A stretch of DNA of 64,000 bases from Candidatus Woesearchaeota archaeon. GTDB lineage: Archaea; Nanobdellota; Nanobdellia; Woesearchaeales; SM23-78. The notes under the pieces are model-generated. The model was not told where the DNA came from and searched no databases. It saw nothing but the letters and a program-made list of their open reading frames with translations. Position 1 is the first letter of the stretch; each line of letters starts with the position of its first letter. Location of the stretch: the NCBI GenBank assembly GCA_016932315.1, contig JAFGDD010000008.1:8588-72587 (forward strand), given 5' to 3'. Shown piece by piece: positions 10,102 through 63,260 of the stretch. A program made the position numbers and the translations under genes.

Positions 10102-10205
10102 AAAAGCCGCCTTTGACAGCCCGTTGGGCGCGACCCCAGTCAAAGCCACCGAACACCTTGACATAAATGTCTGCGGTGTTGTGGCGGGTGGCGGCGGCTT
10201 TTTCC
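10102..10205. mobile_element. MITE-like element, family A (TIR caaaagccgcc / ggcggcttttt), immediately upstream of the kamA-fusion gene
   Basis: GC-rich island in AT-rich DNA. Terminal inverted repeats. The internal ctttgactggggtcgcgcccaacgggctgtcaaagg (reverse complement) is shared with the copy at 63054-63260. Confidence 0.5.
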
Positions 10206-10247
10206 CTGACGCTTACTAAAAAATCAAAAAGAGGTTGAAGATATACC

Positions 10248-12332
10248 ATGAATCTTAAGGAATTCTGCAACAAATACCCTGAAGTCGTTGATGACATTCA
10301 GAAGGTTAAGAGAGTGTATCCTATGAAGCTCTCTGAATATTATTTAGGATTAATCAAGGAGAAAGGCGACGCCATCTGGAAGCAGTGCATCCCTGACATC
10401 AAAGAGTTAGAGGATAGTTTGAATGACGAGGATCCGTTGTTAGAGGAGGAGTACACTCCTGTTCCATGCCTTGTCCACAGGTATCCTGACAGAGTCTTGC
10501 TTCTTGCCAGCAACAAGTGCGCAATGTATTGCAGGTTCTGCACAAGGAAGAGAAAGGTAGGCAAGGAAGTCACCATAACCAAGGAAATGATATCCAGCGC
10601 AATTGACTACATCAGGCAGCACAAGGAAGTAAGGGACGTGATAATCTCTGGCGGAGATCCATTAATGCTTGACGATGATATTTTAGAATGGATTATTAAG
10701 GGCATCAGGGAAATCAAGCACGTCGAAATAATAAGGATAGGCACAAGGGTTCCTTGCACCTTACCGAGTAGGATTACTCCTGAGCTTGTTAACATGCTAA
10801 AAAAGTATCATCCATTGTTCGTTAACGTGCACTTCGAGCATCCTGCTGAGATTACAGAGGAGAGCAAGAAGGCTTGCGAGTTGTTGGCAGACGCAGGCAT
10901 ACCATTAAACAACCAGGCAGTGCTTCTCAAAGGAGTGAATGATGATGTAAAAGTATTGAAAGAATTATTCCACAAGCTAATCCAAATCAGGGTTAAGCCT
11001 TATTACTTGTACCAGGCAGACCAGGTCAAGGGAACAGAGCACTTCAGGACTACCATAGAGGAAGGCATTGACATAATGCACAAGATGATAGGATTCACCT
11101 CAGGCATGTGCGTGCCCCAATTCATAGTGGACGCTCCTGGAGGAGGAAAAATTCCTTTGCTGCCAGAATATGCTCAGCACAGGACAGAGGAAAGCTTGTT
11201 CCTGAAAAACTTTGAAGGCAAGATAGTGGAGTACAAGAATCCTCTTAGCATAGAGGTCAAAAAGAAATCAACTAGCGGAAGGATGAGGATTGCTGTTGTG
11301 TTCAACATGAAAAAAGAAGCAGCCAAGAACATGCCCGAGGATGCTTATGCAGAGTTTGACGAGATAACAGTGCCCTTGGCCATCAAGAAGGCTTTGGAGA
11401 AAAAAGGACATGTTGCAGAACTGGTTGAGGCTAACGAGAGCTTTGTCGAGAAGATAAAGCAAGGAGATTATGACTTTGTCTTTAACATTGCAGAAGGACT
11501 TAACAGCGGCGCAAGGGAAAGCCAGATACCTGCAATCCTTGACATGTTAGGCATTCCTTACACAGGCTCAGGAGTGCTCACTCAGGCAATAACATTGGAC
11601 AAAACCAGGACTAAGGAAATCCTGATGTATCACGGAGTCCCAACTCCAGGTTATCAGTTGTTCAATCACTGGGATGAGAAGATAAGCAAGAACATAACTT
11701 TTCCATTAATCATCAAGCCTAATGCAGAAGGCTCTTCCAAGGGAATAAGGAATAATTCTCTTGTCAACAATGAGAAAGAGCTTAGAAAAATGGTTAAGTT
11801 CGTTGTTAACAATTATAAACAAGCAGCGCTGGCAGAAGAATACCTTGAAGGAAGAGAGTTTACAGTGTCAATCATAGGCAACAACCCTCCGAAAGTGCTC
11901 CCGATTGTTGAGATAACCTTTGATTACCTGCCTTCTGGAGTTCACAAGTTTGATTCTTACGAAGTCAAATGGTACTGGGACAACCCTACCAATCCTGTTG
12001 ATCCAGTAGTCTGCCCTGCCAAGATTGATGATGAGCTCAGAAAAAAAATAGAAGACGTTGCTCTCAGGGCTTACAAAGCACTGGGCATTGTTGATCTTTG
12101 CAGGATGGACATGAGGCTTGACAAGCAAGGCACTCCGCACGTCATTGACGTCAATGCATTGCCAGGACTGATGCCTGACCCGCTTGAAAACTCAAGATTC
12201 CCAAAGGCCTGCTACACTGCAGGCATGAGCTATGAAAAGATAATCAATACAGTCCTCAGCGAAGCTATGAAGAGGTATGGCTTGCCAGCAGAGACCAAGA
12301 GGTTAAAGCATGCGAGTAGGAATTCTGTATAA
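10248..12332 (+). CDS. Fusion protein: KamA-family radical-SAM aminomutase (N-terminal ~350 aa) + D-Ala-D-Ala-ligase-like ATP-grasp domain (C-terminal ~340 aa)
   Basis: CAMYCRFCTRKRKVG matches the KamA CxxxCxxC radical-SAM box. After the KamA domain come FNIAEGLNSGARESQ, IIKPNAEGSSKGI and EEYLEGREFTVSIIGN, all Ddl-type ATP-grasp signatures. Confidence 0.8.
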   Translation: MNLKEFCNKYPEVVDDIQKVKRVYPMKLSEYYLGLIKEKGDAIWKQCIPDIKELEDSLNDEDPLLEEEYTPVPCLVHRYPDRVLLLASNKCAMYCRFCTRKRKVGKEVTITKEMISSAIDYIRQHKEVRDVIISGGDPLMLDDDILEWIIKGIREIKHVEIIRIGTRVPCTLPSRITPELVNMLKKYHPLFVNVHFEHPAEITEESKKACELLADAGIPLNNQAVLLKGVNDDVKVLKELFHKLIQIRVKPYYLYQADQVKGTEHFRTTIEEGIDIMHKMIGFTSGMCVPQFIVDAPGGGKIPLLPEYAQHRTEESLFLKNFEGKIVEYKNPLSIEVKKKSTSGRMRIAVVFNMKKEAAKNMPEDAYAEFDEITVPLAIKKALEKKGHVAELVEANESFVEKIKQGDYDFVFNIAEGLNSGARESQIPAILDMLGIPYTGSGVLTQAITLDKTRTKEILMYHGVPTPGYQLFNHWDEKISKNITFPLIIKPNAEGSSKGIRNNSLVNNEKELRKMVKFVVNNYKQAALAEEYLEGREFTVSIIGNNPPKVLPIVEITFDYLPSGVHKFDSYEVKWYWDNPTNPVDPVVCPAKIDDELRKKIEDVALRAYKALGIVDLCRMDMRLDKQGTPHVIDVNALPGLMPDPLENSRFPKACYTAGMSYEKIINTVLSEAMKRYGLPAETKRLKHASRNSV

Positions 12333-13320
12333 CCTCATAGACCAAGTTGAGAAGGGCAATGAGCTTGACAAGCTTGCTGATAATGAAGTCTATCAGACAG
12401 CTAATGCTGTAAAAGAAGCCTTGTCCAAAAAAGGCTACGAAGTAAGCATGGTCAGGATTGCATCTAATGTAAAGTCTCTCAAGAAGCAGATAAAATCATT
12501 AGAAGGCAAAATGGATTTTGTGTTCAACCTCGCTGAAGGAGTAGGCAGTGATGTTACAGAAGAACCAAGAGTAGTCCGTTATCTGAAAAAATCAGGCATC
12601 CCGTTCACAGGCTGCGATGATTATGCGCTTGCATTGTGCATGGACAAGCTCAAGACAAAAAAAGAGCTAATAAAGAATAACATACCGACGCCAGAATTCC
12701 AGCTGTTCAGGAAAGCAGATGATAAAATCAAGGCAAGCCTGAAGTTCCCATTAATAGTCAAGCCAGTGCACGAGGACGGAAGCATAGGCATAACAGAGGA
12801 CTCCATTGTTTATGATAATAAGCAGCTAAAAAGAAAAGTAAGAGATGTACTCACCAATTACAAGCAGCCAGCACTGGTAGAGGAATACATTGACGGCAGA
12901 GAGATTAACGTCGCCCTCCTTGGCAATGGCAAGCTCGAAGCGCTTCCATTGTCAGAGATAATATTTAATTTCCCCAACGGAACACCAAAGATTGTTTCTT
13001 TCGAGGCCAAATGGATTGAGGATTCTGAGCAGTACAAGGGAACAATAGGAAAATGCCCTGCAGACCTCCCTCAAGATATCCAAGAGAGGCTCTCTTCAAC
13101 TGCCAAAAAGGCTTTCCAGGTGGTTAAGTGCAGGGATTATGGAAGAGTTGACTTCAGAGTGAGAGGAGATGATGTTTATGTGCTTGAGGTGAACCCCAAC
13201 CCCTGCATCAACCCTGTCGGAGCAGGCTTCATACGCTCTGCAAACGCAGCAGGTCTCAGCTATGACGACGTAGTCACCAGGATTGTTGAGATTGCATATA
13301 AAAGGCATTCTGAGAAGTAA
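12310..13320 (+). CDS. Ddl-like ATP-grasp ligase, paralog 2
   Basis: VFNLAEGVGSDVTEEP, FPLIVKPVHEDGSIGI, EEYIDGREINVALLGN. Overlaps the upstream gene by 23 nt, suggesting translational coupling. Confidence 0.75.
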   Translation: MRVGILYNLIDQVEKGNELDKLADNEVYQTANAVKEALSKKGYEVSMVRIASNVKSLKKQIKSLEGKMDFVFNLAEGVGSDVTEEPRVVRYLKKSGIPFTGCDDYALALCMDKLKTKKELIKNNIPTPEFQLFRKADDKIKASLKFPLIVKPVHEDGSIGITEDSIVYDNKQLKRKVRDVLTNYKQPALVEEYIDGREINVALLGNGKLEALPLSEIIFNFPNGTPKIVSFEAKWIEDSEQYKGTIGKCPADLPQDIQERLSSTAKKAFQVVKCRDYGRVDFRVRGDDVYVLEVNPNPCINPVGAGFIRSANAAGLSYDDVVTRIVEIAYKRHSEK

Positions 13321-13598
13321 GCATTAAAAATTTCTATGTGCCAATATTGCGAGCTGATGCCAGAAATTTTATCAGTCAAAAAAAGTTAGAATTAATAAAA
13401 AAAAAATATTTTTCTCTTTTGCGAAACATTTTTATAATCCAAAAATAAAAAAATTATAGAAAAAAAATAAGAATTTTTTTATCGACGACAAAAAAATAAT
13501 CGGAAAAAAACAATACTTTCTGATTAAAAAATAAAAAAATAGAAAAAAAGCAGGAAAAATAAAAAAAATAGCAAAAAAAAGATTATCTTAATCTAAAA
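13321..13598. repeat. Extremely A-rich low-complexity intergenic spacer (~280 bp) between ATP-grasp paralogs 2 and 3
   Basis: Runs of aaaaaaa interspersed with t/g, such as aaaaaaaaaatattttt, aaaaataaaaaaatta and gaaaaaaaataag. No ORF. Confidence 0.6.
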
Positions 13599-14621
13599 AT
13601 GAAGGTCGCAATTGTTTATTCAGATGGTGAACAGACAACCCTTAACGGAGCTGATGACTATAAAGGAAGGAATGATGATACCAACCTGAAAAATGTTGAG
13701 GAAGCCATTAAAAGCCTTAACCATGAAGTAATCAAGCTGAACGCTGATGAAAAAATTTTCTCCAAGCTTCTGGAATTAAAAGACCAAATTGATATTATAT
13801 ACAACCTCGCAGAAGAAGGCTACAGCTTAGATATACACACAGAGCCACATATGGCAGCGCTATTTGAGATGCTTGGATTCAAGTTCACAGGCTCAAACTA
13901 CTTGTGCTTAGCCAACTGCCTTGACAAGATAAGGGCTAAGCAATTATTTGTCGTCAACGGCTTATCAACGCCTAACTTTATGATATTCAACAAAGAAATC
14001 ACTACTGATGTTAAGATTAACGGCTTGAAATTCCCGCTCATAGTAAAGCCAGGGAAAAGCGACGGGAGCATAGGCATACGGCGGAATTCTGTTGTCGAGA
14101 ATAGTGAGCAGCTGGTGATGAAAGTAAACGAGGTCATACAAACCTACGAGCAGCCAGCGCTGGTGGAAGAATTCATCGACGGCAGAGAAGTAAATGTAGC
14201 CATCTTAGGCAACAAGAGGCTTACAGTGCTTCCAATGTCTGAGATAATATTTGACTTGCCTGAAGAGGACTGGAACTTTGTGCCATACGAAGCAAAATGG
14301 CTGACCAAGACCAAATACTACAAAGGAACAACGCCAAAATGCCCTGCAGAGATAGAGCCCGCGCTAAAAGAAGAAATTGAAGAGCTTGCAAAAAAAGCTT
14401 ATACGCTCATGGGAGTCAGGGGCTATGGGAGAGTAGACTTCAGGATTGACGCCAACAACAAGCCTTACATACTCGAAGTTAACCCAAACCCTGACATATC
14501 CCGCGATGCAGGACTCGCAAGAATGATATCAGTTCATGGAATGACTTACGAAGACTTGATAGAAAAAATTCTAAGAATGGGAGTTAACAAGGACGAGCAA
14601 GACATTAGGATTCTAATATAA
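13599..14621 (+). CDS. Ddl-like ATP-grasp ligase, paralog 3
   Basis: IYNLAEEGYSLDIHTEP, FPLIVKPGKSDGSIGI, EEFIDGREVNVAILGN. Same architecture as paralog 2. Confidence 0.75.
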   Translation: MKVAIVYSDGEQTTLNGADDYKGRNDDTNLKNVEEAIKSLNHEVIKLNADEKIFSKLLELKDQIDIIYNLAEEGYSLDIHTEPHMAALFEMLGFKFTGSNYLCLANCLDKIRAKQLFVVNGLSTPNFMIFNKEITTDVKINGLKFPLIVKPGKSDGSIGIRRNSVVENSEQLVMKVNEVIQTYEQPALVEEFIDGREVNVAILGNKRLTVLPMSEIIFDLPEEDWNFVPYEAKWLTKTKYYKGTTPKCPAEIEPALKEEIEELAKKAYTLMGVRGYGRVDFRIDANNKPYILEVNPNPDISRDAGLARMISVHGMTYEDLIEKILRMGVNKDEQDIRILI

Positions 14622-14685
14622 AACACGCCTTTACACCAAGCTTTTTTTCCAAAAAATTTATATTATATTAAACTTACCTGCACTT

Positions 14686-15618
14686 ATGCAAATAAATGAT
14701 TTAATATTCCGAGAATTAGTAAAAAGAGGCTATGCGCTTGAGAGTCAAACTCGGGTCTGGAATGTTGCTGATTCTAAATTATGGTATCTCACTCCAAAAC
14801 AAGCTCAAGGTTTTCTAGATCTAGAAAAGAACCCTGCATACAAGAAAAGCATTATTGACAATGAGATAAAATTAATAAAAAAACACCTGAAAGACTTGCT
14901 CATTACAACCCAAGGCTCAATCAATATTATTGATCTCGGATGCGGTGATGGCAAGAAAGCTTCACTTTTCATAAAAGATCTGTCAAAACATATCAAAGTC
15001 AGGTATTGCCCTATTGATATAAGCGCATATATGGTGTCCAAAGCTGCAAAAACAATCCGTCAAATGAAAATTGGTGAAGTTTTAGAGTTTAAATGGAACA
15101 TATCTGATTTTGAGAATCTGAACAATATTACCCCCCTTTTCAGAGATCAACCATATAATACCCATTTTATGATGCTTCTGGGAAATACTTTGGGTAATTT
15201 TGAAGGTAAAGACTTACTCCACGGCATAAAGAAAAGCATGGAAAAGAACGATGTTCTGATCATTGGAAATGGTCTTAGTGATCATGGAAAAAATTTATCG
15301 CAGCCGTACAAGAACAAGCTATTGGATAAATTCCTCATTCATGTTATTAAGCAGATTGGCTTGAAGCCATCAGAAGTTAAATATGGCGCTCGATTCAAGA
15401 ATTCAAGAGTAGAAATGTTTTATGTAGTGAAAAAAGATAAGCTCTTAAACCATTTGGGAAGGCGTATTCATTTCAAATCAGGTGATTTAATAGTTACAGC
15501 CATTTCTTATAAGTACAGCAAATCTGGTTTTATAAAAATGCTTTCGTATTTCTTCTCAAATATAAAAACTTACACTGATGCTCACAACACATATGCCTTG
15601 TCTATATGTAAAAAATAA
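14686..15618 (+). CDS. EgtD-like (Methyltransf_33) SAM-dependent amine N-methyltransferase
   Basis: SAM motif I IIDLGCGDGKKASLF and YCPIDIS, which resembles the EgtD Y-x-P-(I/V)-D-(I/V)-S box. Size about 310 aa. Confidence 0.6.
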   Translation: MQINDLIFRELVKRGYALESQTRVWNVADSKLWYLTPKQAQGFLDLEKNPAYKKSIIDNEIKLIKKHLKDLLITTQGSINIIDLGCGDGKKASLFIKDLSKHIKVRYCPIDISAYMVSKAAKTIRQMKIGEVLEFKWNISDFENLNNITPLFRDQPYNTHFMMLLGNTLGNFEGKDLLHGIKKSMEKNDVLIIGNGLSDHGKNLSQPYKNKLLDKFLIHVIKQIGLKPSEVKYGARFKNSRVEMFYVVKKDKLLNHLGRRIHFKSGDLIVTAISYKYSKSGFIKMLSYFFSNIKTYTDAHNTYALSICKK

Positions 15619-17309: not shown

Positions 17310-17325
17310 GTTTTAGTTATGATTT

Positions 17326-17440
17326 AAAAAAAGTTGCCGCCACCAGCCGCTGCACCGCAAAAATTTTTATTAAAAATTTTAAGGTGCGTGGTGGCTTGCT
17401 CGGGGGTTGCCCCAACCGGGGTGAGCAAGGCGACTTTTTC
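17326..17440. mobile_element. MITE-like element, family A (TIR aaaaaaagttgccgcc / ggcgactttttc)
   Basis: GC-rich hairpin-prone insert (gcttgctcgggggttgccccaaccggggtgagcaagg) in the convergent pyrG/glnA intergenic region. Termini match the other family-A copies. Confidence 0.5.
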
Positions 17441-17443
17441 AAT

Positions 17444-20189: not shown

Positions 20190-20216
20190 GTTTCATCAGT
20201 TCGTATTTTTTATCAG

Positions 20217-20303
20217 TCAAGATAAGCCCTACTCGCTAACGCTCGTCTCGCCATGCACAACAAAAGCAAAGCTTTTGAGTTGCATATGCTGGGCTCGACG
20301 GTC
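20217..20303. mobile_element. MITE-like element, family B (TIR gtcaagataagccc / ggtcttatcttgac), overlapping the flpA 3' end
   Basis: Terminal inverted repeats. The internal tactcgctaacgctcgtctc is shared with the copy at 22922-23017. Confidence 0.5.
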
Positions 20304-22097: not shown

Positions 22098-22279
22098 TAA
22101 AAAGCAATAATCAGTGTAATCTTTTAAATGTTGCTAAAAATACGTTTTGAGCGGAGAAACCCCGGATTTTTATGCTAGCATTTTATTAATCAGTGTTTCT
22201 ACTATGAATAAATGCAAAGCCTTAAATATTAGTTATACATAAATATAACATAAATATAATTATTTTTAAGGTGATTTGC

Positions 22280-22921: not shown

Positions 22922-23017
22922 GTCAAAATAAGCCCTACTCACTAGCGCTCGTCTCAGCCATTGCAAATTTGCTGATGCAAATGTTGCAAACAAAGGCTTC
23001 GACGGTCTTATTTTGAC
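22922..23017. mobile_element. MITE-like element, family B (TIR gtcaaaataagccc / ggtcttattttgac)
   Basis: Same termini and internal tactcactagcgctcgtctc block as the 20217-20303 copy. Sits between the vapC stop and the aRF1 start. Confidence 0.5.
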
Positions 23018-24237: not shown

Positions 24238-25332
24238 TTACAACAAATTGTAGAAGTTGGTTATCACATTGCAGCAGCCGTAAAGCCCAATGTTTGTGTT
24301 CATTATCACAAAGACAGGGACTTTTCTCAGGAGAGCTTCTTCCCTTGCGTGCTTGTGGAACTCATCAATGAACCTGCTGTCCTTGAAAGCAGCCAGTTTT
24401 TTCAGCACAATTTTGCCGTCAAGGAATAATCCCCCGTAGCACTCTGACACCAATGCAAGGTTCTTGGCAGCCCTTGCATAATATTTTGCGAACAAGTCAA
24501 TGGTCTTGGTGCAAAGCTCATCCTTGCCATAACCAGAATCTATCAATTCAAACTTCTCATCGCCGTTCGCAGAATCAATTCTCTTAACAAGTTCTGTAAC
24601 CGCCGCATTATTCTTGCTTCTCAGGAAATCATATATGTTGCCAAAGCCTCTGCCTGACAATAAAATCTCGTATTCTGGCTGGAAATTTAAGGAGTGTTTC
24701 TTTTTCAGGAACTCCAGCAACTCCCTGTCATCATCGCCATAAGGAGCAAAATCCATGTGCCCTCCTTCAGACGGCAAAGGAACATAAAGGTGCTTGTGGC
24801 GGTTGTAATAAGCAATGCTCATGCCCAGCCCGGTTCCTGCTCCGATGACAGCCCTGGTGTTGCCGAAAACCCCTGCAACATCAGGCTTCAAAGAAAAAAT
24901 GTCCTTGCTGAAATCCAGGCAGTCAAGCCCAAAGCCAATAGCCTCGAAATCATTAATCAACCCAACATGAGCAAGCAGAGTATTTGAGAGGATTTCTGAT
25001 TTCTTTATTTCAAGCCCTGCATTCATTAGCCTGATATGGTCTCTTTTCCTGGAAACAGGTCCTGCGGCGCAGATGCAGCAGCGGCTAATCTCAATCCCGA
25101 AGCGCTCATAAGACTGCTTAAGAATTTCATTAAGCAGCTGATGGATTTCAGAGATCTCCTTCGTTGGGATGTAATGCTTGTAGAGCAGGTCATAATGCAC
25201 GTCGCTCTTAACGCCAAAAACAGCAAAATAAGAATTAGTTCCGCCTATGTCTGCGACAACGCAAAAAAACCTGTAGCAAGACTTGTCAAACTCATAAGTA
25301 GGAAAAACAAACACCTCTTTTAGCATAATCAT
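24238..25332 (-). CDS. Glucokinase (Glk family, ROK-like sugar kinase fold)
   Basis: VVADIGGTNSYFAV matches the Glk phosphate-1 motif and GAGTGLG the phosphate-2 motif. 364 aa. Confidence 0.65.
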   Translation of the reverse strand: MIMLKEVFVFPTYEFDKSCYRFFCVVADIGGTNSYFAVFGVKSDVHYDLLYKHYIPTKEISEIHQLLNEILKQSYERFGIEISRCCICAAGPVSRKRDHIRLMNAGLEIKKSEILSNTLLAHVGLINDFEAIGFGLDCLDFSKDIFSLKPDVAGVFGNTRAVIGAGTGLGMSIAYYNRHKHLYVPLPSEGGHMDFAPYGDDDRELLEFLKKKHSLNFQPEYEILLSGRGFGNIYDFLRSKNNAAVTELVKRIDSANGDEKFELIDSGYGKDELCTKTIDLFAKYYARAAKNLALVSECYGGLFLDGKIVLKKLAAFKDSRFIDEFHKHAREEALLRKVPVFVIMNTNIGLYGCCNVITNFYNLL

Positions 25333-25392
25333 AGAGAAGGGTAAAGGAGTATATAAATATTATCAATTCACTTAGGCTCTGTTGAAAATTTC

Positions 25393-25498
25393 GAAAAAGT
25401 GCTCTACTCTGCACCCCGAAGGGGTAACCCCCGCCGAGCAACCGCCTTGCCTAGCCTTTTGGCGTCGGCAACGGTGGCGGGTGACGCGCACTTTTTCA
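25393..25498. mobile_element. MITE-like element related to family A (TIR gaaaaagtgc / gcactttttc)
   Basis: Perfect 10-bp TIRs. GC-rich core (gcaccccgaaggggtaacccccgccgagcaaccgcc) in an AT-rich intergenic region. Confidence 0.45.
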
Positions 25499-25615
25499 AC
25501 ACACACCAATTCACTTAGTTATTATCTGAGCCTGTTTTAATAATAGGAACCTGTTTTTATTATTTGAATCTGTTTTATACGAGCCCATCAGAATAGATGC
25601 ATCACTCATCACATA

Positions 25616-32152: not shown

Positions 32153-33370
32153 GTAAAGCCTTTTAACCATTTCTTTGCTCGCAAACCTGGCTAGTTCTTT
32201 CATCTTCTCAAAATCTATCTGACCCCCTTCAAAAGCTTTTTGGAGCTTGTACTTGTCCAAGATGCTGAAATCATCCCATAATCCTTGCAGCTTTAGCAGC
32301 TTTACAAATTCTTGGTAGCACTGATCTTCTTTTACAGGAAACTTTAAGCAGTCTTTTTTCCAAACAGTGACTGCTGCGTCAGAGCCGTACAGCCTATCCA
32401 GCTTTTTTGCTTCTGCAAACCTGAAAATCTTTTCCTTCAGCTCATCAATCTTTTTTGCCAGCCTATCTTCCTCTGCCTTGAGCACTGCATACTCATTCAC
32501 CAGCTTTACTCCGTCGTCAGCAAGAAACTCTTCTGGCTTCTTGTCTTCCAGCTCTACAAGGTGGCTGAATTTTGGGCATAAACTCCTGAAATCGCACCAA
32601 TTGCAAAGAGCGCTCTCATTAGGCTGGAAATCCTTTGTGCTCTCAATCTGCTTTATTGCATTAATAACTTCTTTCTTTAGCTCTCCGAGCTGCTCCTCGC
32701 TCCTCTCACTCCTAACCTCCTTGTCAAAAGCAAGGTAGTGCCATATCAAGATTACTTTTTTGCAGTCAGAGAACATCTCTTTCACAGCAATGGCATAAAG
32801 GGCTAGTTGCCTGTCAGTATCAGCATCATCCTGGGTAGGCAAAGTGTTTGCTGTCTTGTAATCATGAATCTCATAAATCCCGTCTTTTGGCGAGGCCAGC
32901 CTGTCAATAAACCCTTGGAGGACGTATTCTCCTTTCTCATCAAGCTTAATCTCAATTCTCATCTCAAGCCCAATAGTTTTTGCCTGGTCAAAAGGAGCAT
33001 AGCGATTATAATAATCTGTTATGAACTTCTCACCCATCTTCTTGAAATTATTCTTATCATACTCTTCGCGCACAATAAGGATGTTGTCGTTCCAGTTCTT
33101 CTCCCATTCAGAATTATAGAAGTCTAGCAGTTGCTGCAAAGAATTAATCTTCTGGAATTTCAAGTCCTTGTAAAGCTTCTCCAAAGCCTCGTGAACCCTT
33201 GAGCCAAGAAAAGCCTCTGCAGTGCCTTCAACCTCTACCTCTGCCTCATCAATGTACTGATACTTGAATTTTAGCGGGCACTGCTCAAAAGTCGAAATCC
33301 TGCTGTGAGAATAGATAGTCATAGGAAAAACAAAAACATAAGTCTTATTTAAAGTTTGTTCTGGATTCAT
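32129..33370 (-). CDS. PD-(D/E)xK nuclease of the Cas4/RecB/AddB-nuclease family with 4-Cys cluster and C-terminal coiled-coil extension
   Basis: YSHSRISTFEQCPLKFKYQY has the N-terminal Cys. GFIDRL...IYEIHDYKT is the D...ExK motif. QLALYA is present. CNWCDFRSLC supplies the C-terminal three Cys. No CRISPR array nearby. Confidence 0.6.
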   Translation of the reverse strand: MNPEQTLNKTYVFVFPMTIYSHSRISTFEQCPLKFKYQYIDEAEVEVEGTAEAFLGSRVHEALEKLYKDLKFQKINSLQQLLDFYNSEWEKNWNDNILIVREEYDKNNFKKMGEKFITDYYNRYAPFDQAKTIGLEMRIEIKLDEKGEYVLQGFIDRLASPKDGIYEIHDYKTANTLPTQDDADTDRQLALYAIAVKEMFSDCKKVILIWHYLAFDKEVRSERSEEQLGELKKEVINAIKQIESTKDFQPNESALCNWCDFRSLCPKFSHLVELEDKKPEEFLADDGVKLVNEYAVLKAEEDRLAKKIDELKEKIFRFAEAKKLDRLYGSDAAVTVWKKDCLKFPVKEDQCYQEFVKLLKLQGLWDDFSILDKYKLQKAFEGGQIDFEKMKELARFASKEMVKRLYLRFTRAN

Positions 33371-33385: not shown

Positions 33386-33519
33386 GAAAAAAAGTCGCCG
33401 CCTGGGCCTTAAGGTGAGCGAAGCGAATAGGAAGCGAAGCTTAACTGCAGGAACAAATTTTCTTCAAATTATTTGAGTCTAAAAATTTGCTGAGCTCACG
33501 GCCAAGGCGACTTTTTTCA
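33386..33519. mobile_element. MITE-like element, family A (TIR gaaaaaaagtcgcc / ggcgacttttttc)
   Basis: 13-14 bp TIRs. Near-identical in organisation to the copy at 40380-40511 (shared gagcgaagcgaa...taggaagcgaagctt...aattttcttca...ctaaaaatttgctgagc..acggccaaggcga). Confidence 0.6.
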
Positions 33520-33555: not shown

Positions 33556-34149
33556 ATGGGAGTTGCGAAATTAAGGCCGGGGGACCCGAGGGATATCCTG
33601 GCTACCAAGTTTGAGATTGAGAATGAGGAAGTGTTCCACCTGAAGAACCTTTACAAGCTTGTTCATGAGTGGCTGGTTGATGAAGGTTTCGAGTCTGCTG
33701 ATGGCGACGCTGACAAGTTCGAAACACTTTATCTTGACAGGATGAAAGAGTCTGGCGAGAAAGAGCATCATATCTGGTGGCGAACAGTCCAGACTCCTAG
33801 AGGCAATAATTATTATAGGTATTTCCTGAAGATTGACTGGCAAACGCTTTACATGAAAAAGATTGAGATTATGCATAAAGGCCAGAAGTTCAGCACTAAC
33901 AAGGGAGACGTAATCCTTAGAGTTGAGGCTTGGCTCCAATTAGACTATGACGATAAGTGGAAGGATAGCAAGTTCTTATCATTCTTTGAAAGGTGGTTTA
34001 GGGAAAGGTTTTATCTTGATAAGATAAAGAGCTACAGGCAAGACCTCTACCTGACTGCATTCAGGCTGCACACAGTAGTCAAGCAGTATCTACAACTCAA
34101 GGCTCCTGTTGACTGGGGCAAGCCGTTCCACCCGGTAAAGGGATTATAA
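33556..34149 (+). CDS. Hypothetical protein
   Basis: ORF with start moved to MGVAKL to clear the MITE. W-rich (HHIWWRTVQTP, DWQTLYMKK). No recognisable motifs. Confidence 0.3.
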   Translation: MGVAKLRPGDPRDILATKFEIENEEVFHLKNLYKLVHEWLVDEGFESADGDADKFETLYLDRMKESGEKEHHIWWRTVQTPRGNNYYRYFLKIDWQTLYMKKIEIMHKGQKFSTNKGDVILRVEAWLQLDYDDKWKDSKFLSFFERWFRERFYLDKIKSYRQDLYLTAFRLHTVVKQYLQLKAPVDWGKPFHPVKGL

Positions 34150-36003: not shown

Positions 36004-36018
36004 TTCTTAGTTAGAGAC

Positions 36019-36096
36019 AAAATCATCGTCTGGGCCAAGGGCGAGCGAAGCGAACGAACAAAAATCTGTGCTGAGCGAGCGGCCAAGATGATTTTA
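36019..36096. mobile_element. Short deletion-derivative of the family-A MITE (TIR aaaatcatc / gatgatttt)
   Basis: Internal ctgggccaagggcgagcgaagcgaa...ctgagcgagcggccaag matches the core of the 33386 and 40380 copies. Confidence 0.4.
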
Positions 36097-36172
36097 GCAC
36101 TGAATTTCTGCGAAGAATTTATATATTAGAAACGCGGTAAATAAGATTATATGACAGGGAAAGAGGGTAGTT

Positions 36173-39381: not shown

Positions 39382-40371
39382 ATGATTAGGACTTATCTTT
39401 GCATAAAGAATAAGCTTGTCAAGAATATTCCCCTTAAGAAGCTCAAGCAATACATTGGCAAGAAGAACGTCACAATATGGGCTGATTTGTTCCAAGCCAC
39501 ACCAGACGAATACAAGCAAATCCATGGCCTATTCAAATTCCACCCATTAACAATGGAGGACGTAAGAAAATCAATAGAGCTGCCTAAGGTTGAGGTTTTT
39601 GATAACTACATATTTGTAGTTTTACACAGCATAATCCAAAGCCAGCAGGATAAATACCCGAAAAAAAGAGAGATAGACTTTTTCTTGGGATGCAATTATC
39701 TTGTATCCGTACATATCCATGAATCTCTCGGGGTTGAGCATTTAGCGGAAAAACTGGAGAAAAACAATTCCGCCACTTCCCAAAAACCTGACTTCATGAT
39801 GTATGAAATTGTCGACTACTTTGTCGACCAATATTTCCCATTGCTGGAGATATGGGATGACAAGATAGAGGCGTTGGAAGCCAACATTATCTCCCAAAAA
39901 AACCTCCATAATACCTTAAAGGACATTATGTACATAAAAAGAGAGTTGCTCTACCTAAAAAAGAGCATTGCCCCTCAAAGAGATGTTATTAACAAGCTCG
40001 CTAGAAGAGACTTCCCTCTAATCCATCCTAGAACCAGCGTTTATTTCAGGGATGTTTATGACCACATCATGAGGGCTTATGCAGAGCTCGAGATCCAAAG
40101 GGACATCCTCAGCGGCAACTTTGAGGCTTATACTTCAGTACTCTCAAACAGGCTTGCTCTCATATCCAACAAGATGAACGAGGTAATGAAACGGCTCACA
40201 GTCATCGCAACCATCTTCATGCCCTTGACATTCCTCGCAGGGGTTTATGGTATGAACTTCCATTATTTCCCAGAAATCAGCTGGAGGTACGGCTACTACA
40301 TATTCTGGGTTTTATGCGTGATTATCGGGTTATTCATGTACTGGTTCTTCAGGAGAAGAAAGTGGGCTTAG
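39382..40371 (+). CDS. corA: CorA magnesium/cobalt transporter
   Basis: C-terminal two TM helices with the GVYGMNF (GMN) signature. Confidence 0.9.
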   Translation: MIRTYLCIKNKLVKNIPLKKLKQYIGKKNVTIWADLFQATPDEYKQIHGLFKFHPLTMEDVRKSIELPKVEVFDNYIFVVLHSIIQSQQDKYPKKREIDFFLGCNYLVSVHIHESLGVEHLAEKLEKNNSATSQKPDFMMYEIVDYFVDQYFPLLEIWDDKIEALEANIISQKNLHNTLKDIMYIKRELLYLKKSIAPQRDVINKLARRDFPLIHPRTSVYFRDVYDHIMRAYAELEIQRDILSGNFEAYTSVLSNRLALISNKMNEVMKRLTVIATIFMPLTFLAGVYGMNFHYFPEISWRYGYYIFWVLCVIIGLFMYWFFRRRKWA

Positions 40372-40379
40372 GCCTGAAT

Positions 40380-40511
40380 AAAAAAATTCGCCGCCATGGC
40401 CAAGATGTGAGCGAGGCTGATAGGAAGCGAAGCTTGAAAGGCAGGGACAAATTTTCTTCAGATTTTAATAATCTAAAAATTTGCTGAGCGAACGGCCAAG
40501 GCGAATTTTTT
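40380..40511. mobile_element. MITE-like element, family A (TIR aaaaaaattcgcc / ggcgaatttttt)
   Basis: Near-copy of the 33386-33519 element, in the convergent corA/SpoU-MTase intergenic region. Confidence 0.6.
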
Positions 40512-40524
40512 ATTATCAACAATT

Positions 40525-43419: not shown

Positions 43420-43821
43420 CTAGCCTGATTTAATCTGCTTCATTATTTTTTCATTCAGTATTGTCCAGTAAACCACTGTGGCATTCTCCGCGATATTGTC
43501 TTTCAGGTCTTCTGGTATTGCGAGGTCAAAGGTTTCATAAGTCTCTGAGTCCATTACATTGGCAACATCGCCGCTTATGTTTAATACCTGGGCGTTTCGT
43601 TTCTCAATCACCGGAACATCAAGCTCGTCGTGGCCAGGCACCACTATCTGCCTTTTCTTATTGTCAATCATGCCGACAGCCTCCAGCCTTACTTTTGAAT
43701 GACCGTGCTTGCCAGGCTTTGACGTCTGGATGCCTGAAACAGTGCATGCAACACCATCAATTATAACGTAGTTGCCAACCTGAAAGTTGACCGCTCCTTT
43801 CCTCTTAACCTCACCTGCCAT
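43420..43821 (-). CDS. eif5a: Translation initiation factor 5A (aIF5A)
   Basis: Hypusine loop TSKPGKHGHSKV. Start placed at MAGEVKRKG, which gives about 133 aa. The upstream extension in the ORF track overlaps a MITE. Confidence 0.85.
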   Translation of the reverse strand: MAGEVKRKGAVNFQVGNYVIIDGVACTVSGIQTSKPGKHGHSKVRLEAVGMIDNKKRQIVVPGHDELDVPVIEKRNAQVLNISGDVANVMDSETYETFDLAIPEDLKDNIAENATVVYWTILNEKIMKQIKSG

Positions 43822-43902
43822 ATTATCACCATTAAAAATTGTATTCCTTAAAGAGATAATAAACCCTTTAAAAATCTTGCGGAAAAGATTAAGAAGCATT
43901 AT

Positions 43903-44306
43903 AAAAGTCGCCGCAGCCTGCAGCAATGCTAAGTGCGATAACAAATTTTAATTTGTTGAGAACTTGGCTTGTGGCTGCAGGGGCAGGGGCTGCCCCACAG
44001 GCTTTCGTCTCAAAGCCTGGGGATTGCAAAACTTTGTTTTGCAATATCAAAAACCAAATGTTTTTGCTTAAAGTTGTGCTACACTCGCCTTGAACATGCT
44101 CGGTAGCACTCAACGCATGGAATGGGACACCAAATCCAATGGTTTTGGGGCTCAAAATTCCATCAGGGAATTTTGTTGCTTCCGAAGGAATGCCCCATAA
44201 TAATCCTTTTACCAGATTTCATCCAAACTTGTTTTGGATGAACCAGCAAATCGAAGATTTGCTTGTTTTGTATGAAAATCTGTCGGGGGTGCCGAAGGCG
44301 ACTTTT
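43903..44306. mobile_element. Larger (~400 bp) family-A TIR element (TIR aaaagtcgccgcagcc / ggcgactttt)
   Basis: Same termini as the other family-A copies. The 5' end (gtcgccgcagcctg) is shared with the 63054 copy. GC-rich, and its only ORFs are short overlapping antisense ones. Confidence 0.5.
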
Positions 44307-44332
44307 CAAAAAAAGGCATAAGATATTAATCT

Positions 44333-46240: not shown

Positions 46241-47881
46241 TCAGTCTTTCTCTCCATTACCATTCCCATTGTTACCATTATCATCTGCTTTTTCATCATC
46301 AGCTTCTCCTTTGAGTGATTCCATCTCCATTATTTCTTCCTGGATTTCTTTCTTCTTTATCATCTCATTAAGATGCTTTACAATCTTGTCCTTGCTTTCT
46401 CCTGTTAATCTTGCAAGAGCATCAGCAACTTCTGGAATATACCTCTCAAAAAGATTTGCTCTTTCTAATTGGTTCTTTACTCTGTGCTTCTTGTGAACAT
46501 AAGTCTGAAGCCTTCTTCCTGCTTCCTGCAATGCAAGCCTTATCTCGTCTATAATCTCAGGGTAGTGAGCTATTGCTTCTTTGCTTTCACTGGTGAAAGG
46601 AACCCACACGCTTGCTATATGCACTGCAATGGTTACTGGCCCTGTTGGCAGTGCTCCGTTGCTCTGCTGCAACCCATAAGGCTTCCAATTTGTTTGAGTT
46701 ACGCTCTTGTAAATGCTGCAAGCTCCTTGCTGGTAGAGCAATGGGACCCTGTTGGCGAATCGTAATAAGTTAATTGAGCCGTCTGCCTGTTGGTTTCCTC
46801 CATAAGCAATTGCTACTTCTACCTGGAACGGGTTGCCTCTGTAAACTGTCGGGCTCCTGCTGACTGCGCAGTAGAATTCTGCGTTAACCTCTTTTCTTAA
46901 TCCTTTCTCAAATAATTCCTCGCCTATCGGGCTTATGCAGTCTGTTGGCGGGCTTATTATTTTTGTCTCCTTGATTGCATTGATGAGCTTTTCAGCATCG
47001 TCTCTTGAAACCTTTTTTGGAGCTGTATTAGGAGGCACCAATGCTTTTTCGCAGATTTCCTTTGCAGTGCCAGGCCCGACTCTTGAGAACTCATTAGTAA
47101 GAAAGGCTTGCAATGTGCGGAACTCTGTGTTACTCATCATCTTCAAAAGAATTCCGAGCTCTACCCCGTATGGGTGAGGCTTTATCTCTTTTGGCTGCTT
47201 AGGCATTTGCTCGCTTGCTCTTGGAAATATTATCTGCTCTGCCTTAGGATTAACATAAGTGATTGTGACGTGAGGATTAATGATTGCAGTCTCTTTCAAG
47301 TATTCGTCAACGCTTTGAAGGCCTTTGAGATAGCTTCCTTCAATGTCAAGCTCTACCCTTGTTCCGTGAGGCTTATCCCATTCCTTGGCTTCATCTCCTA
47401 ATATTAATGGCTTGTTAGTGATTGTGTCTATTTTTAGCTCATAATAATTAGCAGGCTTGTTAGGAGCAATCTTGCTAAGGATTCTTGCAGGCCTGCCTGT
47501 TGTTAATTGGGCGTACATCACGCTTGCGCTTATTCCTATTCCTTGCTGCCCTCTGCCCTGCTTTAATCTGTGGAACTTGCTGCCGTAGAGAAGCTTTGCA
47601 AAGACTTTTGGTATTTGTTCCTTTACAATGCCTGGCCCATTATCCTCGACAACGACGCGAAAGCGCTCATTGCCCATGTCTATTAGTTCTACAAGTACTT
47701 CCGGCACTATTTCTGCTTCTTCGCAAGCATCTAATGAGTTGTCAACAGCTTCTTTTACTGCTGTTAGCAAGGCTTTTCTCTTATTATCAAAGCCTAGTAA
47801 GTGCCTGTTTTTCTCAAAGAATTCTGCAACAGAGATTTCTCTCTGCTTCTTTGCTAATTCCTCAGCCTTAGTAGTAGCCAT
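46241..47881 (-). CDS. top6B: DNA topoisomerase VI subunit B (GHKL ATPase)
   Basis: Bergerat-fold motifs (EAVDNSLDA, VEDNGPGI, GQQGIGISA). Immediately upstream of top6A. Confidence 0.9.
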   Translation of the reverse strand: MATTKAEELAKKQREISVAEFFEKNRHLLGFDNKRKALLTAVKEAVDNSLDACEEAEIVPEVLVELIDMGNERFRVVVEDNGPGIVKEQIPKVFAKLLYGSKFHRLKQGRGQQGIGISASVMYAQLTTGRPARILSKIAPNKPANYYELKIDTITNKPLILGDEAKEWDKPHGTRVELDIEGSYLKGLQSVDEYLKETAIINPHVTITYVNPKAEQIIFPRASEQMPKQPKEIKPHPYGVELGILLKMMSNTEFRTLQAFLTNEFSRVGPGTAKEICEKALVPPNTAPKKVSRDDAEKLINAIKETKIISPPTDCISPIGEELFEKGLRKEVNAEFYCAVSRSPTVYRGNPFQVEVAIAYGGNQQADGSINLLRFANRVPLLYQQGACSIYKSVTQTNWKPYGLQQSNGALPTGPVTIAVHIASVWVPFTSESKEAIAHYPEIIDEIRLALQEAGRRLQTYVHKKHRVKNQLERANLFERYIPEVADALARLTGESKDKIVKHLNEMIKKKEIQEEIMEMESLKGEADDEKADDNGNNGNGNGEKD

Positions 47882-53772: not shown

Positions 53773-54026
53773 GAATGAGTGCTTTAAAAGAATATAAAAA
53801 CTTTCCTCTTTTTTCGGAATTCTTCCGCTTCCCCCTCTTCTCGTTAGAATTCGTGTTTGGAAGCGCCCAGATTTAATTTTCTTCTCGTTTTCTGAATAAG
53901 AATATCAATAATTGCCATTATTTCATCTCTATAAGTGCTAGACCGGTGATTTCGTTTAACATATTGATAGAATTAGTTTATAAGCTTCACGCGAGGATGT
54001 CCAGTGTGCACGGAATTCTTTCGGAA

Positions 54027-54056
54027 AATAAGCACTAGCACTGGACATGTTGACGT
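54027..54056. repeat. 30-nt repeat aataagcactagcactggacatgttgacgt (copy 1), ~100 nt upstream of the RHH-PIN pair
   Basis: Exact second copy at 55321-55350. The cactggacat core is mirrored by atgtccagtg at 53997-54006. Confidence 0.7.
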
Positions 54057-54156
54057 AGGATATTTAAATCGATATTCTTATCTTCCTCTCGGCATGTTAC
54101 CGAAACATTTAAATATTTGCACTGATTACACAGTTTTAGATGCAGAGGTAAATTTC

Positions 54157-55320: not shown

Positions 55321-55350
55321 AATAAGCACTAGCACTGGACATGTTGACGT
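55321..55350. repeat. 30-nt repeat aataagcactagcactggacatgttgacgt (copy 2), ~110 nt upstream of mazE
   Basis: Identical to 54027-54056. Confidence 0.7.
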
Positions 55351-55459
55351 CAGGCATATAAACATTCCCTGTTAAGCATCTTCAATCAAAACATTTATAT
55401 ACCTTTCCTTACTTTTCTTACAAGTAAGAAAGGTGATATTCATGGGGTTGTTAATCGGT

Positions 55460-61751: not shown

Positions 61752-63032
61752 TTACAAGTCATCACTTATTAATATGTTGACTCTGCCCTGGCTCTTGAGT
61801 TTTGTGTCCATTGCTACCAGGAAGCTTACGTTAGCTCTTTCTGCTATTACCAGAAGGTCCTTGTCAACTACTCCGTCGAATATTACTGCGTATACTCCTG
61901 AGCGTAAGCTCTTGATTGTTCCTTGAAGCTCTGATAATGGAACTTTTCCTAATATAGTTAATTTCTCGTCAAGCAAGTAAGCTCCTCTTGTTCCAATTAA
62001 GTCCTCAAGCATCTCCTCAAACACTTCCTTCTCGTGAGGCGTTGGCTCTTTTGGCTTGCCTCCAGGCATTGGTGCCTGCATTTGAGGTGGCTGCATTGGC
62101 CTTGGTGCTTGCTGCTGCTGAGGCATGGGTCTCCTGTCGCGGTTGTCCCTGTAATCCCTGCTCGGCTGAGGCCTTCTTTCCTCTATCCTCATGCTGTCTG
62201 AGGGCATTTCTGTCTTTGCCTGCTCAAAAGCAACCCTGGCTCTTAATGCCTTGTGGATTTCCTTCTTTGTAAGCTCTTCTACTTCTTTGCCGTCTGGCGC
62301 CTTGGTCACAAAGTCTATCTCTGCGACTCCGCCCAGCTCCTTGATTATCAAGTCTCCGCCTCTGTCGCCATCTACAAAAATTGTCAGTGTCTTCTTCTTG
62401 CTCAAGTCAATAATGGTTTCTGGCACGCTGGTGCCGTTCATTGCAATAACATTCTTGAAGCCTTGCTTTAAGAGGTTGAGAACATCAGCTCTTCCTTCGA
62501 CAACAATTACTTCGTCGCTCTCATCCACTGCTGGTCCTGCCGGTAATCTGTCCTTGCCGTATTCCTGGATTTCCATCACTCTCACAGCATAAGATACTTC
62601 GTCTGCGAGTTCCTGGCTGTCAGGCATGGTGGCTTCAATAAGGTTCTTTAATAGCTCCTTTGCCCTGTCAATCACAAACTGCCTCTTAGAAACCCTTACA
62701 TCCTCAATATTCACAACTTTTATCTTTGCATTGCAAGGTCCTATTCGCTGGATTACTTCAAGGCTTGCAGCCACAATGCTGGTCTCTGCCTTGTCCAAAG
62801 AACTTGGTATTATGATGACGCCTGCTGATTTTCCGCTCTTGATGTCAACATTAACCTCTATCCTTCCTATTCTTCCGCTTCTCTGCAATTCCCTTAATTC
62901 CAGGTCTGCTCCTAGCAAGCCTTCTGTCTGCCCGAAAATAGCTCCTATCACATCAGGCCTGTCTACGACGCCGTCAATCTGGATCTCTGCATGCACTATG
63001 TATTTTGCTGATACTTGCGCTATCTTTGCCAT
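61752..63032 (-). CDS. dnaG: Archaeal DnaG primase (Toprim) with P/Q-rich low-complexity insert
   Basis: N-terminal [41 protein letters not shown] is the archaeal DnaG signature. Toprim region [21 protein letters not shown]. Insert [25 protein letters not shown]. Confidence 0.85.
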
Positions 63033-63053
63033 TGTTTTTCACCTTTAGTTTTG

Positions 63054-63260
63054 CAAAAAAATCGCCGCAGCCTGTGCTCAGAAGTGCGCTTCTGGCACCT
63101 CAAAAGCAAAGCTTTTGTTGGCAGCAAGTGCGACGAAGTTCACAATGTGAACGAGTTGCACGCTGGCTGCTTTGACTGGGGTTGCGCCCCATGGGCTGTT
63201 GCTAGATCAAGCCTAGCAACTCCAAAAGTTTACTTTTGGCTGTCAAAGGCGATTTTTTCC
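63054..63260. mobile_element. MITE-like element, family A (TIR caaaaaaatcgccgcagcc / ggcgattttttcc), 21 bp upstream of the dnaG start codon
   Basis: Shares gtcgccgcagcctg with the 43903 copy. Shares ctttgactggggttgcgcccc...ggctgtcaaaggcg with the 10102 copy (opposite orientation). Confidence 0.55.

Follow-up and report, generated by a model that had tools for sequence, protein, structure and literature searches.

A hairpin-core repeat family of DPANN archaea, probably mobile as an IS1-type miniature element, with eight copies in 64 kb of a Woesearchaeota contig

Introduction

Several families of short repeats with hairpin or transposon-like features have been described in prokaryotes. SPRITE repeats are short, multicopy, intergenic sequences of bacteria that combine a stable hairpin with a T-run and often lie at gene ends (PMC10969869). 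[quoted passage not shown] The archaeal MITEs of Sulfolobus (SM1 to SM4), Halobacterium, and Haloquadratum are nonautonomous and carry TIRs and target site duplications (TSDs) that match those of resident insertion sequence (IS) families (PMC10969869). The IS1 family has the InsA/InsAB' organization (PMC8944449), and a published census gives approximately 105 MITEs per Mb in a Woesearchaea genome (PMC11602168). Here we analyze eight GC-rich islands in a 64,000-nt stretch of a Candidatus Woesearchaeota archaeon contig (JAFGDD010000008.1, positions 8,588 to 72,587; assembly GCA_016932315.1), the whole of which is referred to below as the window. A previous reading made from the sequence alone had interpreted the islands as MITE-like elements of one family. 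Our analysis indicates that they are probably copies of a hairpin-core repeat specific to DPANN archaea whose mobile form is an IS1-type MITE; one window copy is an intact insertion, and the remaining seven, relics or products of another route, are solo cores that probably resemble terminators acting in both directions.

Results

The eight islands belong to one family with two subtypes

The eight islands, labeled el1 to el8 in coordinate order, were present where the sequence-only reading had placed them, each opening with an A-run and G/A-TCGCC and closing with GGCGA-C/T and a T-run. A scan for exact stems (AAAA plus 6 nt, paired with the reverse complement plus TTTT) recovered 10102-10202, 33389-33516, 40383-40509, 43903-44306, and 63057-63257, and a GC-island scan also picked out the islands. 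They range in size from 78 to 404 nt, are noncoding save for an open reading frame (ORF) through el1, and are all intergenic, as had been described, if this probably spurious 85-aa ORF is set aside. Each folds more stably than its dinucleotide shuffles, a check that had been proposed for the GC-rich cores, with z scores ranging from -2.2 (36010-36105, el5) to -7.2 (43898-44312, el7) and including -3.3 for el1, -4.0 for el2, and -5.8 for el8.

Two covariance models spanning 118 to 129 positions were used, R1 for the subtype designated type B and R2 for type A, the latter containing no window sequence. Using R1, scores of 86.4 bits were obtained for el4 (33386-33519, plus strand, versus 29.8 on the minus strand), 83.7 for el6 (40379-40513), 33.5 for el2, 31.2 (E 2e-7) for el5 (36014-36100), and 25 for el1 (minus strand). 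Using R2, the scores were 98.8 bits (E 3e-27) for el2 (17325-17442), 93.7 (E 1e-25) for el1 (10098-10206, minus strand, versus 25.8 on the plus strand), 36.9 for the core of el3 (25391-25499, minus strand), 32.6 for part of el8 (63111-63250), and 25.7 for part of el7 (43899-44010). Together, the models recognized all eight copies, each on the strand inferred from its motifs, which upholds the view that the islands are a single repeat family. Neither model detected any further copy in the window; eight is therefore the correct count.

Visual comparison and alignment divide the copies into two subtypes with a common closing stem, type A (el1, el2, el3, el7, and el8) and type B (el4, el5, and el6). 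The only window pair alike over the full length is 33387-33517 and 40380-40511, with 82.6% identity; 36019-36096 is a shortened relative, and 31 nt of el1 (10116-10146) are an inverted match of 63169-63199 in el8, with 90% identity. The internal blocks that had been listed as shared by the copies are real, but each is confined to one subtype: 'gagcgaagcgaa' and 'ggccaagg' to type B (el4 to el6), and 'gtcgccgcagcctg' and 'ctttgactggggtYgcgccc' to type A (el1, el7, and el8). Decay by internal deletion, which had been offered for the variation in length, appears to apply to 36014-36100 only; in general, arms expand and contract around a conserved junction with compensated pairing. The window islands are repeat elements rather than novel RNA genes.

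True transposon ends lie outside the hairpin core

The termini AAAAAGTCGCC...GGCGACTTTTT, previously taken for TIRs, are in fact the two strands of P1, the closing stem of an internal hairpin core of 100 to 400 nt, and the true inverted repeats (IRs) lie outside it. A pattern search with the two halves of P1 over 185,579 species genomes gave 41 places, 38 of which are in 18 metagenome-assembled genomes (MAGs) of DPANN archaea (Woesearchaeota, Pacearchaeota, and 'Nanoarchaeia'), often at three or four per MAG; the other three were chance bacterial matches. A type-A pattern search of metagenomes yielded eight more copies, and at least 60 copies are now known from the 18 other MAGs and metagenome contigs, in addition to the eight in the window. 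Loci and contigs from these other genomes or metagenomes are given L-numbers below. Two scans of viral contigs contained no copies, and a viral origin was therefore dropped.

In most of these foreign copies the hairpin sits inside a larger element with a left end GGCTCTGTAGAAAAAGTCGCC... and a right end ...GGCGACTTTTTCGAGATTTTCTACAGAGCC. The outer IR of this mobile form, GGCTCTGTAG..., is of the IS1 type, 'GGnnnTG', and the larger elements are bordered by copy-specific direct repeats of 9 to 10 bp, such as CTATTGTTGA, GGTAGATATA, ACAAAAAAT, and GGTGTATTA. The search for TSDs that had been recommended gave a flanking repeat score of at least 9 in 25 of 59 units, compared with 5% when left and right flanks were taken from different copies, and the geometry was constant. 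Flanking repeats so far above the control and with a fixed geometry identify these units as real MITEs. Identical copies were located at contig ends in the foreign MAGs, as befits a repeat that breaks assemblies. At two loci of one MAG (DATDTM01), L040 on its left flank and L021 on its right, contigs end inside identical MITE copies; as the outer flanks both carry TTTTAAACC, the assembly probably broke at a single insertion, of which these contig ends represent the two sides.

One window copy is a complete insertion

Outer IRs were found at one window copy, el3 (25375-25507, minus strand), in which they enclose the type-A-like core. They read GGCTCTGTTGAAAATTTCG at 25375-25393 and ...CAACACACACC at 25497-25507, and the TIR begins GGCTCTGTTG...; a search of the window for the outer repeat returned a single match, at 25375 beside el3, with one mismatch to GGCTCTGTAGAAAA. 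The el3 IR aligns with those of other MITEs and of the IS1-like IS described below. A 10-bp TSD, AATTCACTTA, lies at 25365-25374 on the left and 25508-25517 on the right, and the flanking direct repeat matches at up to 12/12 positions in the canonical geometry. Read on the strand of the glucokinase gene (24238-25332), the order is TSD, 3 nt, AATATTTATATA, 21 nt, and the ATG at 25332, which places el3 directly upstream of the glucokinase promoter. The sequence-only reading had listed 25393-25498 merely as a related copy; it is indeed a family member, but also the sole complete MITE of the window. The MITE interpretation therefore holds at the level of the family (TIRs, 9- to 10-bp TSDs, multiple copies, and an IS with matching ends), but within the window it is shown for el3 alone.

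The window glucokinase has 100% identity to a Candidatus Woesearchaeota protein encoded on a 90.6-kb contig; its next relatives share 73 to 75% amino acid identity with it, and the loci are not syntenic. In 42 kb from the nearest relatives (two 21-kb loci; 73% amino acid identity), no copies were found, glucokinase promoters included; these relatives are distant and nonsyntenic. The empty-site test by means of glucokinase homologs was set aside for this reason, leaving as a weak residue that their glucokinase promoters are empty.

An IS1-like IS has the same ends

IS1-family elements have GGnnnTG ends, generate TSDs of 8 to 9 (up to 10) bp, and prefer AT-rich targets. An element of this type, a 1.07-kb IS (L044:5279-6345), was found in the contig L044, which comes from a relative of the window organism. 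It interrupts a DUF1648/SdpI gene whose counterpart in the sister contig L043 is intact. This IS has 25-bp IRs beginning GGCACTGTCTTA and an 8-bp TSD, GTCTATAT, and encodes an InsA-type zinc-ribbon protein followed, past an A8 run, by a second overlapping frame (InsB'). The InsA product scored 28.5 bits against PF03811 (cutoff, 26.1), and NF050000 gave 28.6 bits (cutoff, 28). The frameshift-fused product matched the NCBIfam IS1 transposase model NF033558 (E 4e-18) with 66 bits, below the equivalog cutoff of 100, and is thus a distant IS1 member. Homologs are present on many short contigs, with one protein found in 75 index blocks, 57 of which have contigs of <2 kb.

Relatives of this IS (L053 to L060) have IRs GGCACTGTCTTA... 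and GGCTCTGTCCTAAAATAG, the latter identical to the MITE ends in L030 and L028 over 13 to 14 nt and close to both the canonical MITE end and that of el3. The IS ends are GGCACTG and GGCTCTG, and a second 8-bp TSD, AAGAATTA, was found in L057. The transposase-bearing element with the same ends that had been proposed as a search target therefore exists, as the IS1-like IS in L044 and L053 to L060, and further copies of the repeat exist in other DPANN genomes. The window itself gave no match in a tblastn search with the IS1-like transposase, in line with the earlier remark that it holds no cognate transposase. An IS903/IS5 parentage, suspected from the IS903 IR and the 9-bp TSD, was dropped after the IS1-like IS with the same ends was found.

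MITE insertions tend to lie at the edge of promoter-like motifs

When 29 TSD-bearing insertions were aligned on the TSD, a sharp ATATATAAAGnTT signal resembling a TATA box and B recognition element (BRE) appeared at -15 to -3, ending 2 to 3 nt from the TSD; in 24 of 28 copies, the distance from its end to the core was 22±2 nt. Near-identical copies in one genome have unrelated boxes, which shows that the box is target rather than cargo. With a leave-one-out matrix, 18 of the 29 insertions had the motif to the left of the TSD and 10 had it in mirror image on the right; 4 had it on each side, and about 5 had none. The target is thus of a symmetric kind, with no significant orientation rule. A strict insertion orientation relative to the promoter was withdrawn on the same counts. 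At 16 motif-bearing flanks, a long ORF starts 31 to 40 nt from the TSD and points away from the element, with its ATG ~25 nt from the box, as expected of archaeal TATA boxes in leaderless promoters. The promoter-edge rule is obeyed by el3, and no such position was seen at the two IS insertions examined (L044 and L057). The pattern may reflect a preference of the transposase, factor-guided targeting, or survival bias.

The core is a branched hairpin with compensatory changes

The core is a branched hairpin in which P1, usually an A-run plus GUCGCC paired with GGCGAC plus a U-run, encloses a three-way junction. In order, type B comprises P1 (11 bp), a GCCUA/AA loop, GGCC/GGCC, an AAGAU bulge, a helix of 6 to 9 bp with tandem G·A, a hairpin whose loop, AUUCGUAAGA, is conserved, and a 7-bp hairpin whose loop varies. 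Type A consists of P1, a variable arm, and a 7-bp helix around GGGGUYGC-CCC-loop-GGG. Across 14 type-B sequences, 96.6% of cells are paired, compared with 37 to 43% when the partners are slid, and 35 cells show double changes versus 13.5 in shuffles (0/500); in type A, 17 of 33 pairs show compensatory change across 11 sequences. The first position of P1 covaries (G-C, A-U, and U-A), with GCGCC in L037:7019, and el6 differs from el4 by the compensated change from GUCGCC/GGCGAC to UUCGCC/GGCGAA. These compensatory changes in the core stems indicate that pairing matters. In L018:5792-5945, a type-B core has the closing stem GUAGGAACACCACC/GGUGGUGUUCCUAC, without A/T runs and wholly covaried relative to the usual AAAAAGUCGCC; a stem so entirely different implies that the pairing of P1 is kept and not its sequence.

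No element gave an Rfam match at the gathering threshold, or at E ≤0.5 when the whole window was scanned; el7 gave none at E ≤10, and four related loci gave none at E ≤1. Known RNA families (RNase P, signal recognition particle RNA, small RNAs, and ribozymes) were rejected on the lack of Rfam matches, with hammerhead and K-turn consensus sequences misfitting by hand. An intron with a bulge-helix-bulge motif in the closing stem was also discarded, as both bulges are on the same strand. A strand test comparing G·U with A·C mismatches was without signal for type B, and for type A it showed just a single conserved G·U.

Window copies and their gene context

All eight copies have terminator-like anatomy on both strands, a GC-rich stem followed by a T-run, with runs of 4 to 7 T on the 3' side of each strand. 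For five or six of the eight, a stop codon is ≤30 nt away, and two copies separate convergent genes. The latter are el2 (plus strand), a solo type-A core that fills the spacer between the CTP synthase (stop, 17309) and glutamine synthetase (stop, 17444) genes identified with Pfam, and el6 (plus strand), a solo type-B core in the spacer between the genes for CorA (stop codon, 40369-40371) and a SpoU methylase (stop, 40525). The sequence GGCTTAG at 40365-40371, 8 nt before el6, contains the corA stop TAG and matches the start of the MITE IR variant GGCTTAGTAG at 7/7 positions; since the solo-core flanks, taken together, match IRs no better than random DNA does, this match may be due to chance. 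GGCTTAG at el6 and GTCTG at el4 were accordingly discarded as IR remnants beside solo cores.

The other type-B copies are el4 and el5, both on the plus strand. The solo core el4 lies between divergent genes, a PD-(D/E)XK nuclease gene on the left, for which the corrected start is probably the ATG near 33316 with a TATA box at 33343-33350, and a plus-strand gene on the right that starts near 33556; this TATA-like motif scores 9.5 and is 32 nt from the core. The truncated core el5 begins 16 nt past the stop codon of a pfkB-family kinase gene and retains P1 (AAAAUCAUC/GAUGAUUUU), the GGCC helix, and the GA-rich helix, the two inner hairpins being gone.

Three type-A copies (el1, el7, and el8) are located between codirectional genes, their 5' ends 3 to 43 nt from the ATG of the downstream gene and on the other strand, and similar placements were seen in L024 (grpE>dnaK), L033 (rpl10>rpl12), L045, and L049. 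A Shine-Dalgarno-like sequence mostly intervenes between core and ATG in these pairs. The KamA/ATP-grasp fusion gene, which is on the opposite strand, has its ATG 43 nt from the 5' end of el1, a solo core of ~100 nt without outer IR or TSD. The archaeal dnaG ATG (63032) is preceded at 21 nt by el8 (63054-63260, plus strand) in antisense orientation. Both distances agree with those first reported, measured from 10205 to the fusion start at 10248 and from 63054 to the dnaG ATG. It had been concluded that transcription of both genes must start inside or cross the element. For dnaG this is reasonable given the Shine-Dalgarno-like AAAGGTGA between el8 and the ATG, but it is not forced for the kamA fusion, where an A-rich, TATA-like box between el1 and the ATG offers an alternative start.

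The large forms el7 and el8 are expanded cores of ~404 and ~201 nt, respectively, built on the type-A frame with additional small hairpins. In el7 (43899-44310, plus strand), the first 112 nt fit the type-A model and are followed by ~290 nt of extra small hairpins and then the 3' strand of P1; it sits between a PHP-domain gene (stop, 44333) and the aIF5A gene, both on the minus strand. The CAAAAGCAAGCUUUUG hairpin of el8 is common to the large type-A MITEs L046 and L048, which bear a TIR and TSD. Beyond el8, ~560 nt (63261-63818) without a plausible ORF or any Rfam match extend to a small minus-strand gene for a thioredoxin-like C terminus and include a GC-rich patch at 63620-63676.

Other features of the window

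Pfam assignments mark the source as an archaeon (GC content, ~40%) and include topoisomerase VI-B (46241-47881), aIF5A (43420-43944, minus strand, with a probable ATG near 43811), archaeal Toprim DnaG (61752-63032, minus strand), and a Hel308-type helicase. The 85-aa ORF through el1 (9962-10219, plus strand), the GC-rich upstream part of which (9987-10100) lies outside the element, directly precedes the KamA-like radical-SAM/ATP-grasp fusion gene and three ATP-grasp paralogs with a common 100-nt repeat block (10248-15618). This could be a peptide-modification cluster with its precursor gene, or the ORF could be fortuitous. Between two of the ATP-grasp genes, 13431-13568 is extremely A-rich with a period of ~43 nt.

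A tRNA gene at 7605-7693 (minus strand) with a 16-nt intron scored 51.7 bits in Rfam and was called as Ser(tga) by ARAGORN, intron at 32/33, only with introns allowed. Beside it, 7268-7600 (minus strand) opens like a tRNA 5' half (GAGCCCAUAGCUUAGCCUGGUAAGC) and closes with ...CCGUGUUCAAAU, ~110 nt, and CACGGUGGGCUC. ARAGORN made no tRNA call at 7268-7600 with a single intron allowed, and the region may be a tRNA with several long, noncanonically placed introns. Other dispersed short repeats outside the hairpin-core family, with 76 to 91% identity, were found at 20216-20249 and 22922-22955 and at 54027-54068 and 55321-55362 (with an inverted arm at 53976-54006), while those at 22162, 48015, and 51308 resemble a shared promoter-type 33-mer.

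Discussion

The account that we consider probable is that of a DPANN hairpin core made mobile as an IS1-type MITE. An IS1-family InsAB' would move the MITE in trans with staggered cuts of 9 to 10 bp and would insert it preferentially 2 to 3 bp outside a TATA/BRE-like promoter motif, el3 being such a complete MITE put just upstream of the glucokinase promoter. The seven solo cores, which occupy short spacers at gene ends and starts, are most likely old, immobilized insertions or copies from another route. Pairing in the core has been maintained by compensatory change. With T-runs on both strands, the core would plausibly terminate or insulate transcription in both directions or form a hairpin at mRNA ends. 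As only one window copy keeps true ends, the islands are a new addition to a familiar class of genome parasite and not a new kind of system.

Several observations weigh against this account. Of the eight window copies, seven showed neither outer IRs nor a TSD, and they have flanks that resemble IRs no better than random DNA does. Homology between copies ends exactly at the A/T runs, even between el1 and L033:4575-4675, from another Woesearchaeota MAG and an unrelated gene context, which share 84% identity; this sits uneasily with a simple relic model and hints that spread may be independent of TIRs. No transposase was found in the window or in the MITE-bearing loci, and the TSDs of the IS are 8 bp, compared with 9 to 10 bp for the MITEs. 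Nothing in the interior of the IS resembles the hairpin core, so that the MITE is not a plain deletion derivative but rather consists of IS1-type ends around foreign cargo. With regard to function, G·U and A·C mismatches are about equal in type B, which gives no evidence for selection on one RNA strand, and archaeal termination can proceed without hairpins.

The boundary of homology at the base of the A/T runs, the lack of the core in the IS interior, and the el1/L033 pair, at unrelated loci and with neither member bearing an IR or TSD, would fit an explanation that we regard as unlikely, namely, that the cores form a repeat unit in their own right, selfish or belonging to the host and akin to REP/BIME or SPRITE sequences, which spreads without IS1 ends, for instance by a hairpin-specific enzyme or by template switching. 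The MITEs would then be a secondary capture, and the seven window copies would be primary. The occurrence of the same core with different outer sequences (L030) or a different closing stem (L018:5792) and the single orientation of TIR-less type-A cores relative to the adjacent gene start (7/7) point the same way. However, no enzyme or target signature for such spread was found, and near-identical copies within a genome, which are seen among IR-bearing copies, were not seen among TIR-less ones. Moreover, a TATA-like motif is present at the canonical distance beside TIR-less copies in L025, L032, L035, L038, L047, and L037:7023, where ~20 nt of unrecognizable spacer take the place of the IR and TSD, and TIR-less type-B copies score below IR-bearing ones on the family model, as expected if they are older.

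It is improbable that the cores are genes or cis-regulatory elements of a structured RNA family of DPANN archaea, such as a protein-binding small RNA or an intercistronic regulatory hairpin, with an incidental link to transposons. Such a family would account for the strong compensatory covariation and conserved three-way junction, for the conserved loops of type B and type A, for the tandem G·A of the type-B helix and the G·U pair conserved in 6 of 11 type-A sequences, for the clear strand asymmetry of the model scores, and for the very negative fold z scores of el7 and el8. It would also suit cores that separate grpE from dnaK and rpl10 from rpl12 or precede dnaG and aIF5A, with a Shine-Dalgarno-like sequence after them. 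Against this, Rfam was empty even at E values of 0.5 to 10, the loci are not conserved, with the same core beside unrelated genes across genomes, and TSDs prove insertion for at least 25 copies; near-identical multicopy sets and contig breaks are what mobile repeats typically produce. The equal G·U and A·C counts in type B, the lack of an evident promoter of their own at the window copies, and the 42 kb of close relatives without cores likewise speak against an RNA family. The explanation, named by the sequence-only reading among those that would refute it, that the islands are unrelated, intrinsic terminator-like hairpins that converged on an A-run, GC stem, and T-run, for which the T-runs on both strands, the GC-rich closing stem of every copy, and the proximity to stop codons would speak, is scarcely credible, since the homology of the elements extends well past the stem (E 1e-24 to 1e-27, including with the model lacking window sequences), the elements are 100 to 400 nt with conserved internal junctions, unlike terminators, they are present at just 8 of ~65 genes, and the family has TIRs and TSDs elsewhere.

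Within the IS1-type MITE account, the insertion pattern and the covarying core can be joined in a reading that we put forward tentatively and hold to be possible rather than likely, in which the family integrates at a fixed position, with the TSD 2 to 3 bp outside the BRE/TATA motif of promoters, many of them leaderless, and carries the hairpin as a selected functional module. The transposase would then read promoter DNA shape or a TBP/TFB-bound complex, and the cargo could be a promoter-shielding bidirectional terminator or insulator, or a cruciform that aids synapsis of the ends of a very short element. Either kind of functional cargo would account for the persistence of solo cores at gene boundaries long after the decay of their ends.

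DPANN archaea are uncultivated and have tiny, gene-dense genomes, and their mobile DNA and transcription signals are almost unknown. The family described here is a searchable repeat, defined by two covariance models, an outer IR, and an IS1-like partner, and accounts for assembly breaks in Woesearchaeota MAGs. Its insertions mark promoters at single-base resolution in organisms without transcriptomes, and the tolerance of natural insertions between essential codirectional genes (grpE-dnaK and rpl10-rpl12, and upstream of dnaG and aIF5A) informs on archaeal termination and operon expression. Promoter-edge targeting, if mechanistic, would give prokaryotic transposons a new means of reaching safe sites, and the hairpin core, if functional, would make this a transposon that spreads a regulatory module; the promoter-edge target and the covarying cargo are what could lift the family beyond a known kind.

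Comparison with known systems

The window elements resemble SPRITE repeats in being short, multicopy, intergenic, and terminator-like, with a hairpin followed by a T-run. They differ in being archaeal (DPANN) and in having a branched core with a three-way junction, two subtypes, and T-runs on both strands, and their mobile form has IS1-type IRs, 9- to 10-bp TSDs, and a TATA/BRE-adjacent target. With Correia elements the family shares the character of hairpin MITEs with TIRs near genes. Correia elements, however, have a TA duplication, sigma-70 promoters, an integration host factor (IHF) site, and no identified IS1-like partner, whereas the family described here has TSDs of 9 to 10 bp, an archaeal TATA/BRE-like target, and cross-genome covariation of the core. 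Like repetitive extragenic palindromic sequences and their mosaics (REP/BIME) in enterobacteria, the islands are intergenic GC-rich palindromes that lie between convergent genes or in operons and may act as mRNA-end hairpins, and the seven solo cores likewise lack classical TIRs and TSDs. REP sequences, though, are simple hairpins of 20 to 40 nt spread by RAYT (IS200/IS605-like) transposases, while the cores are branched, span 100 to 400 nt, and elsewhere have IS1-type ends; no RAYT came to light here, although no search was aimed at one.

The likeness to the IS1 family lies in the GGnnnTG ends, TSDs of 8 to 10 bp, and a partner with an InsA zinc ribbon and InsB' joined by frameshifting at an A-run. 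The partner transposase is nevertheless a distant member, and the MITE interior is an unrelated structured hairpin rather than the result of a simple IS deletion. Among the archaeal MITEs described so far, no report concerns DPANN archaea apart from a bulk density figure (PMC11602168), and none describes a structured core that covaries or a target at promoter edges. If integration at a fixed promoter-edge position is true, this archaeal MITE family would be a counterpart of the promoter-targeted integration of Ty3 and Tf1.

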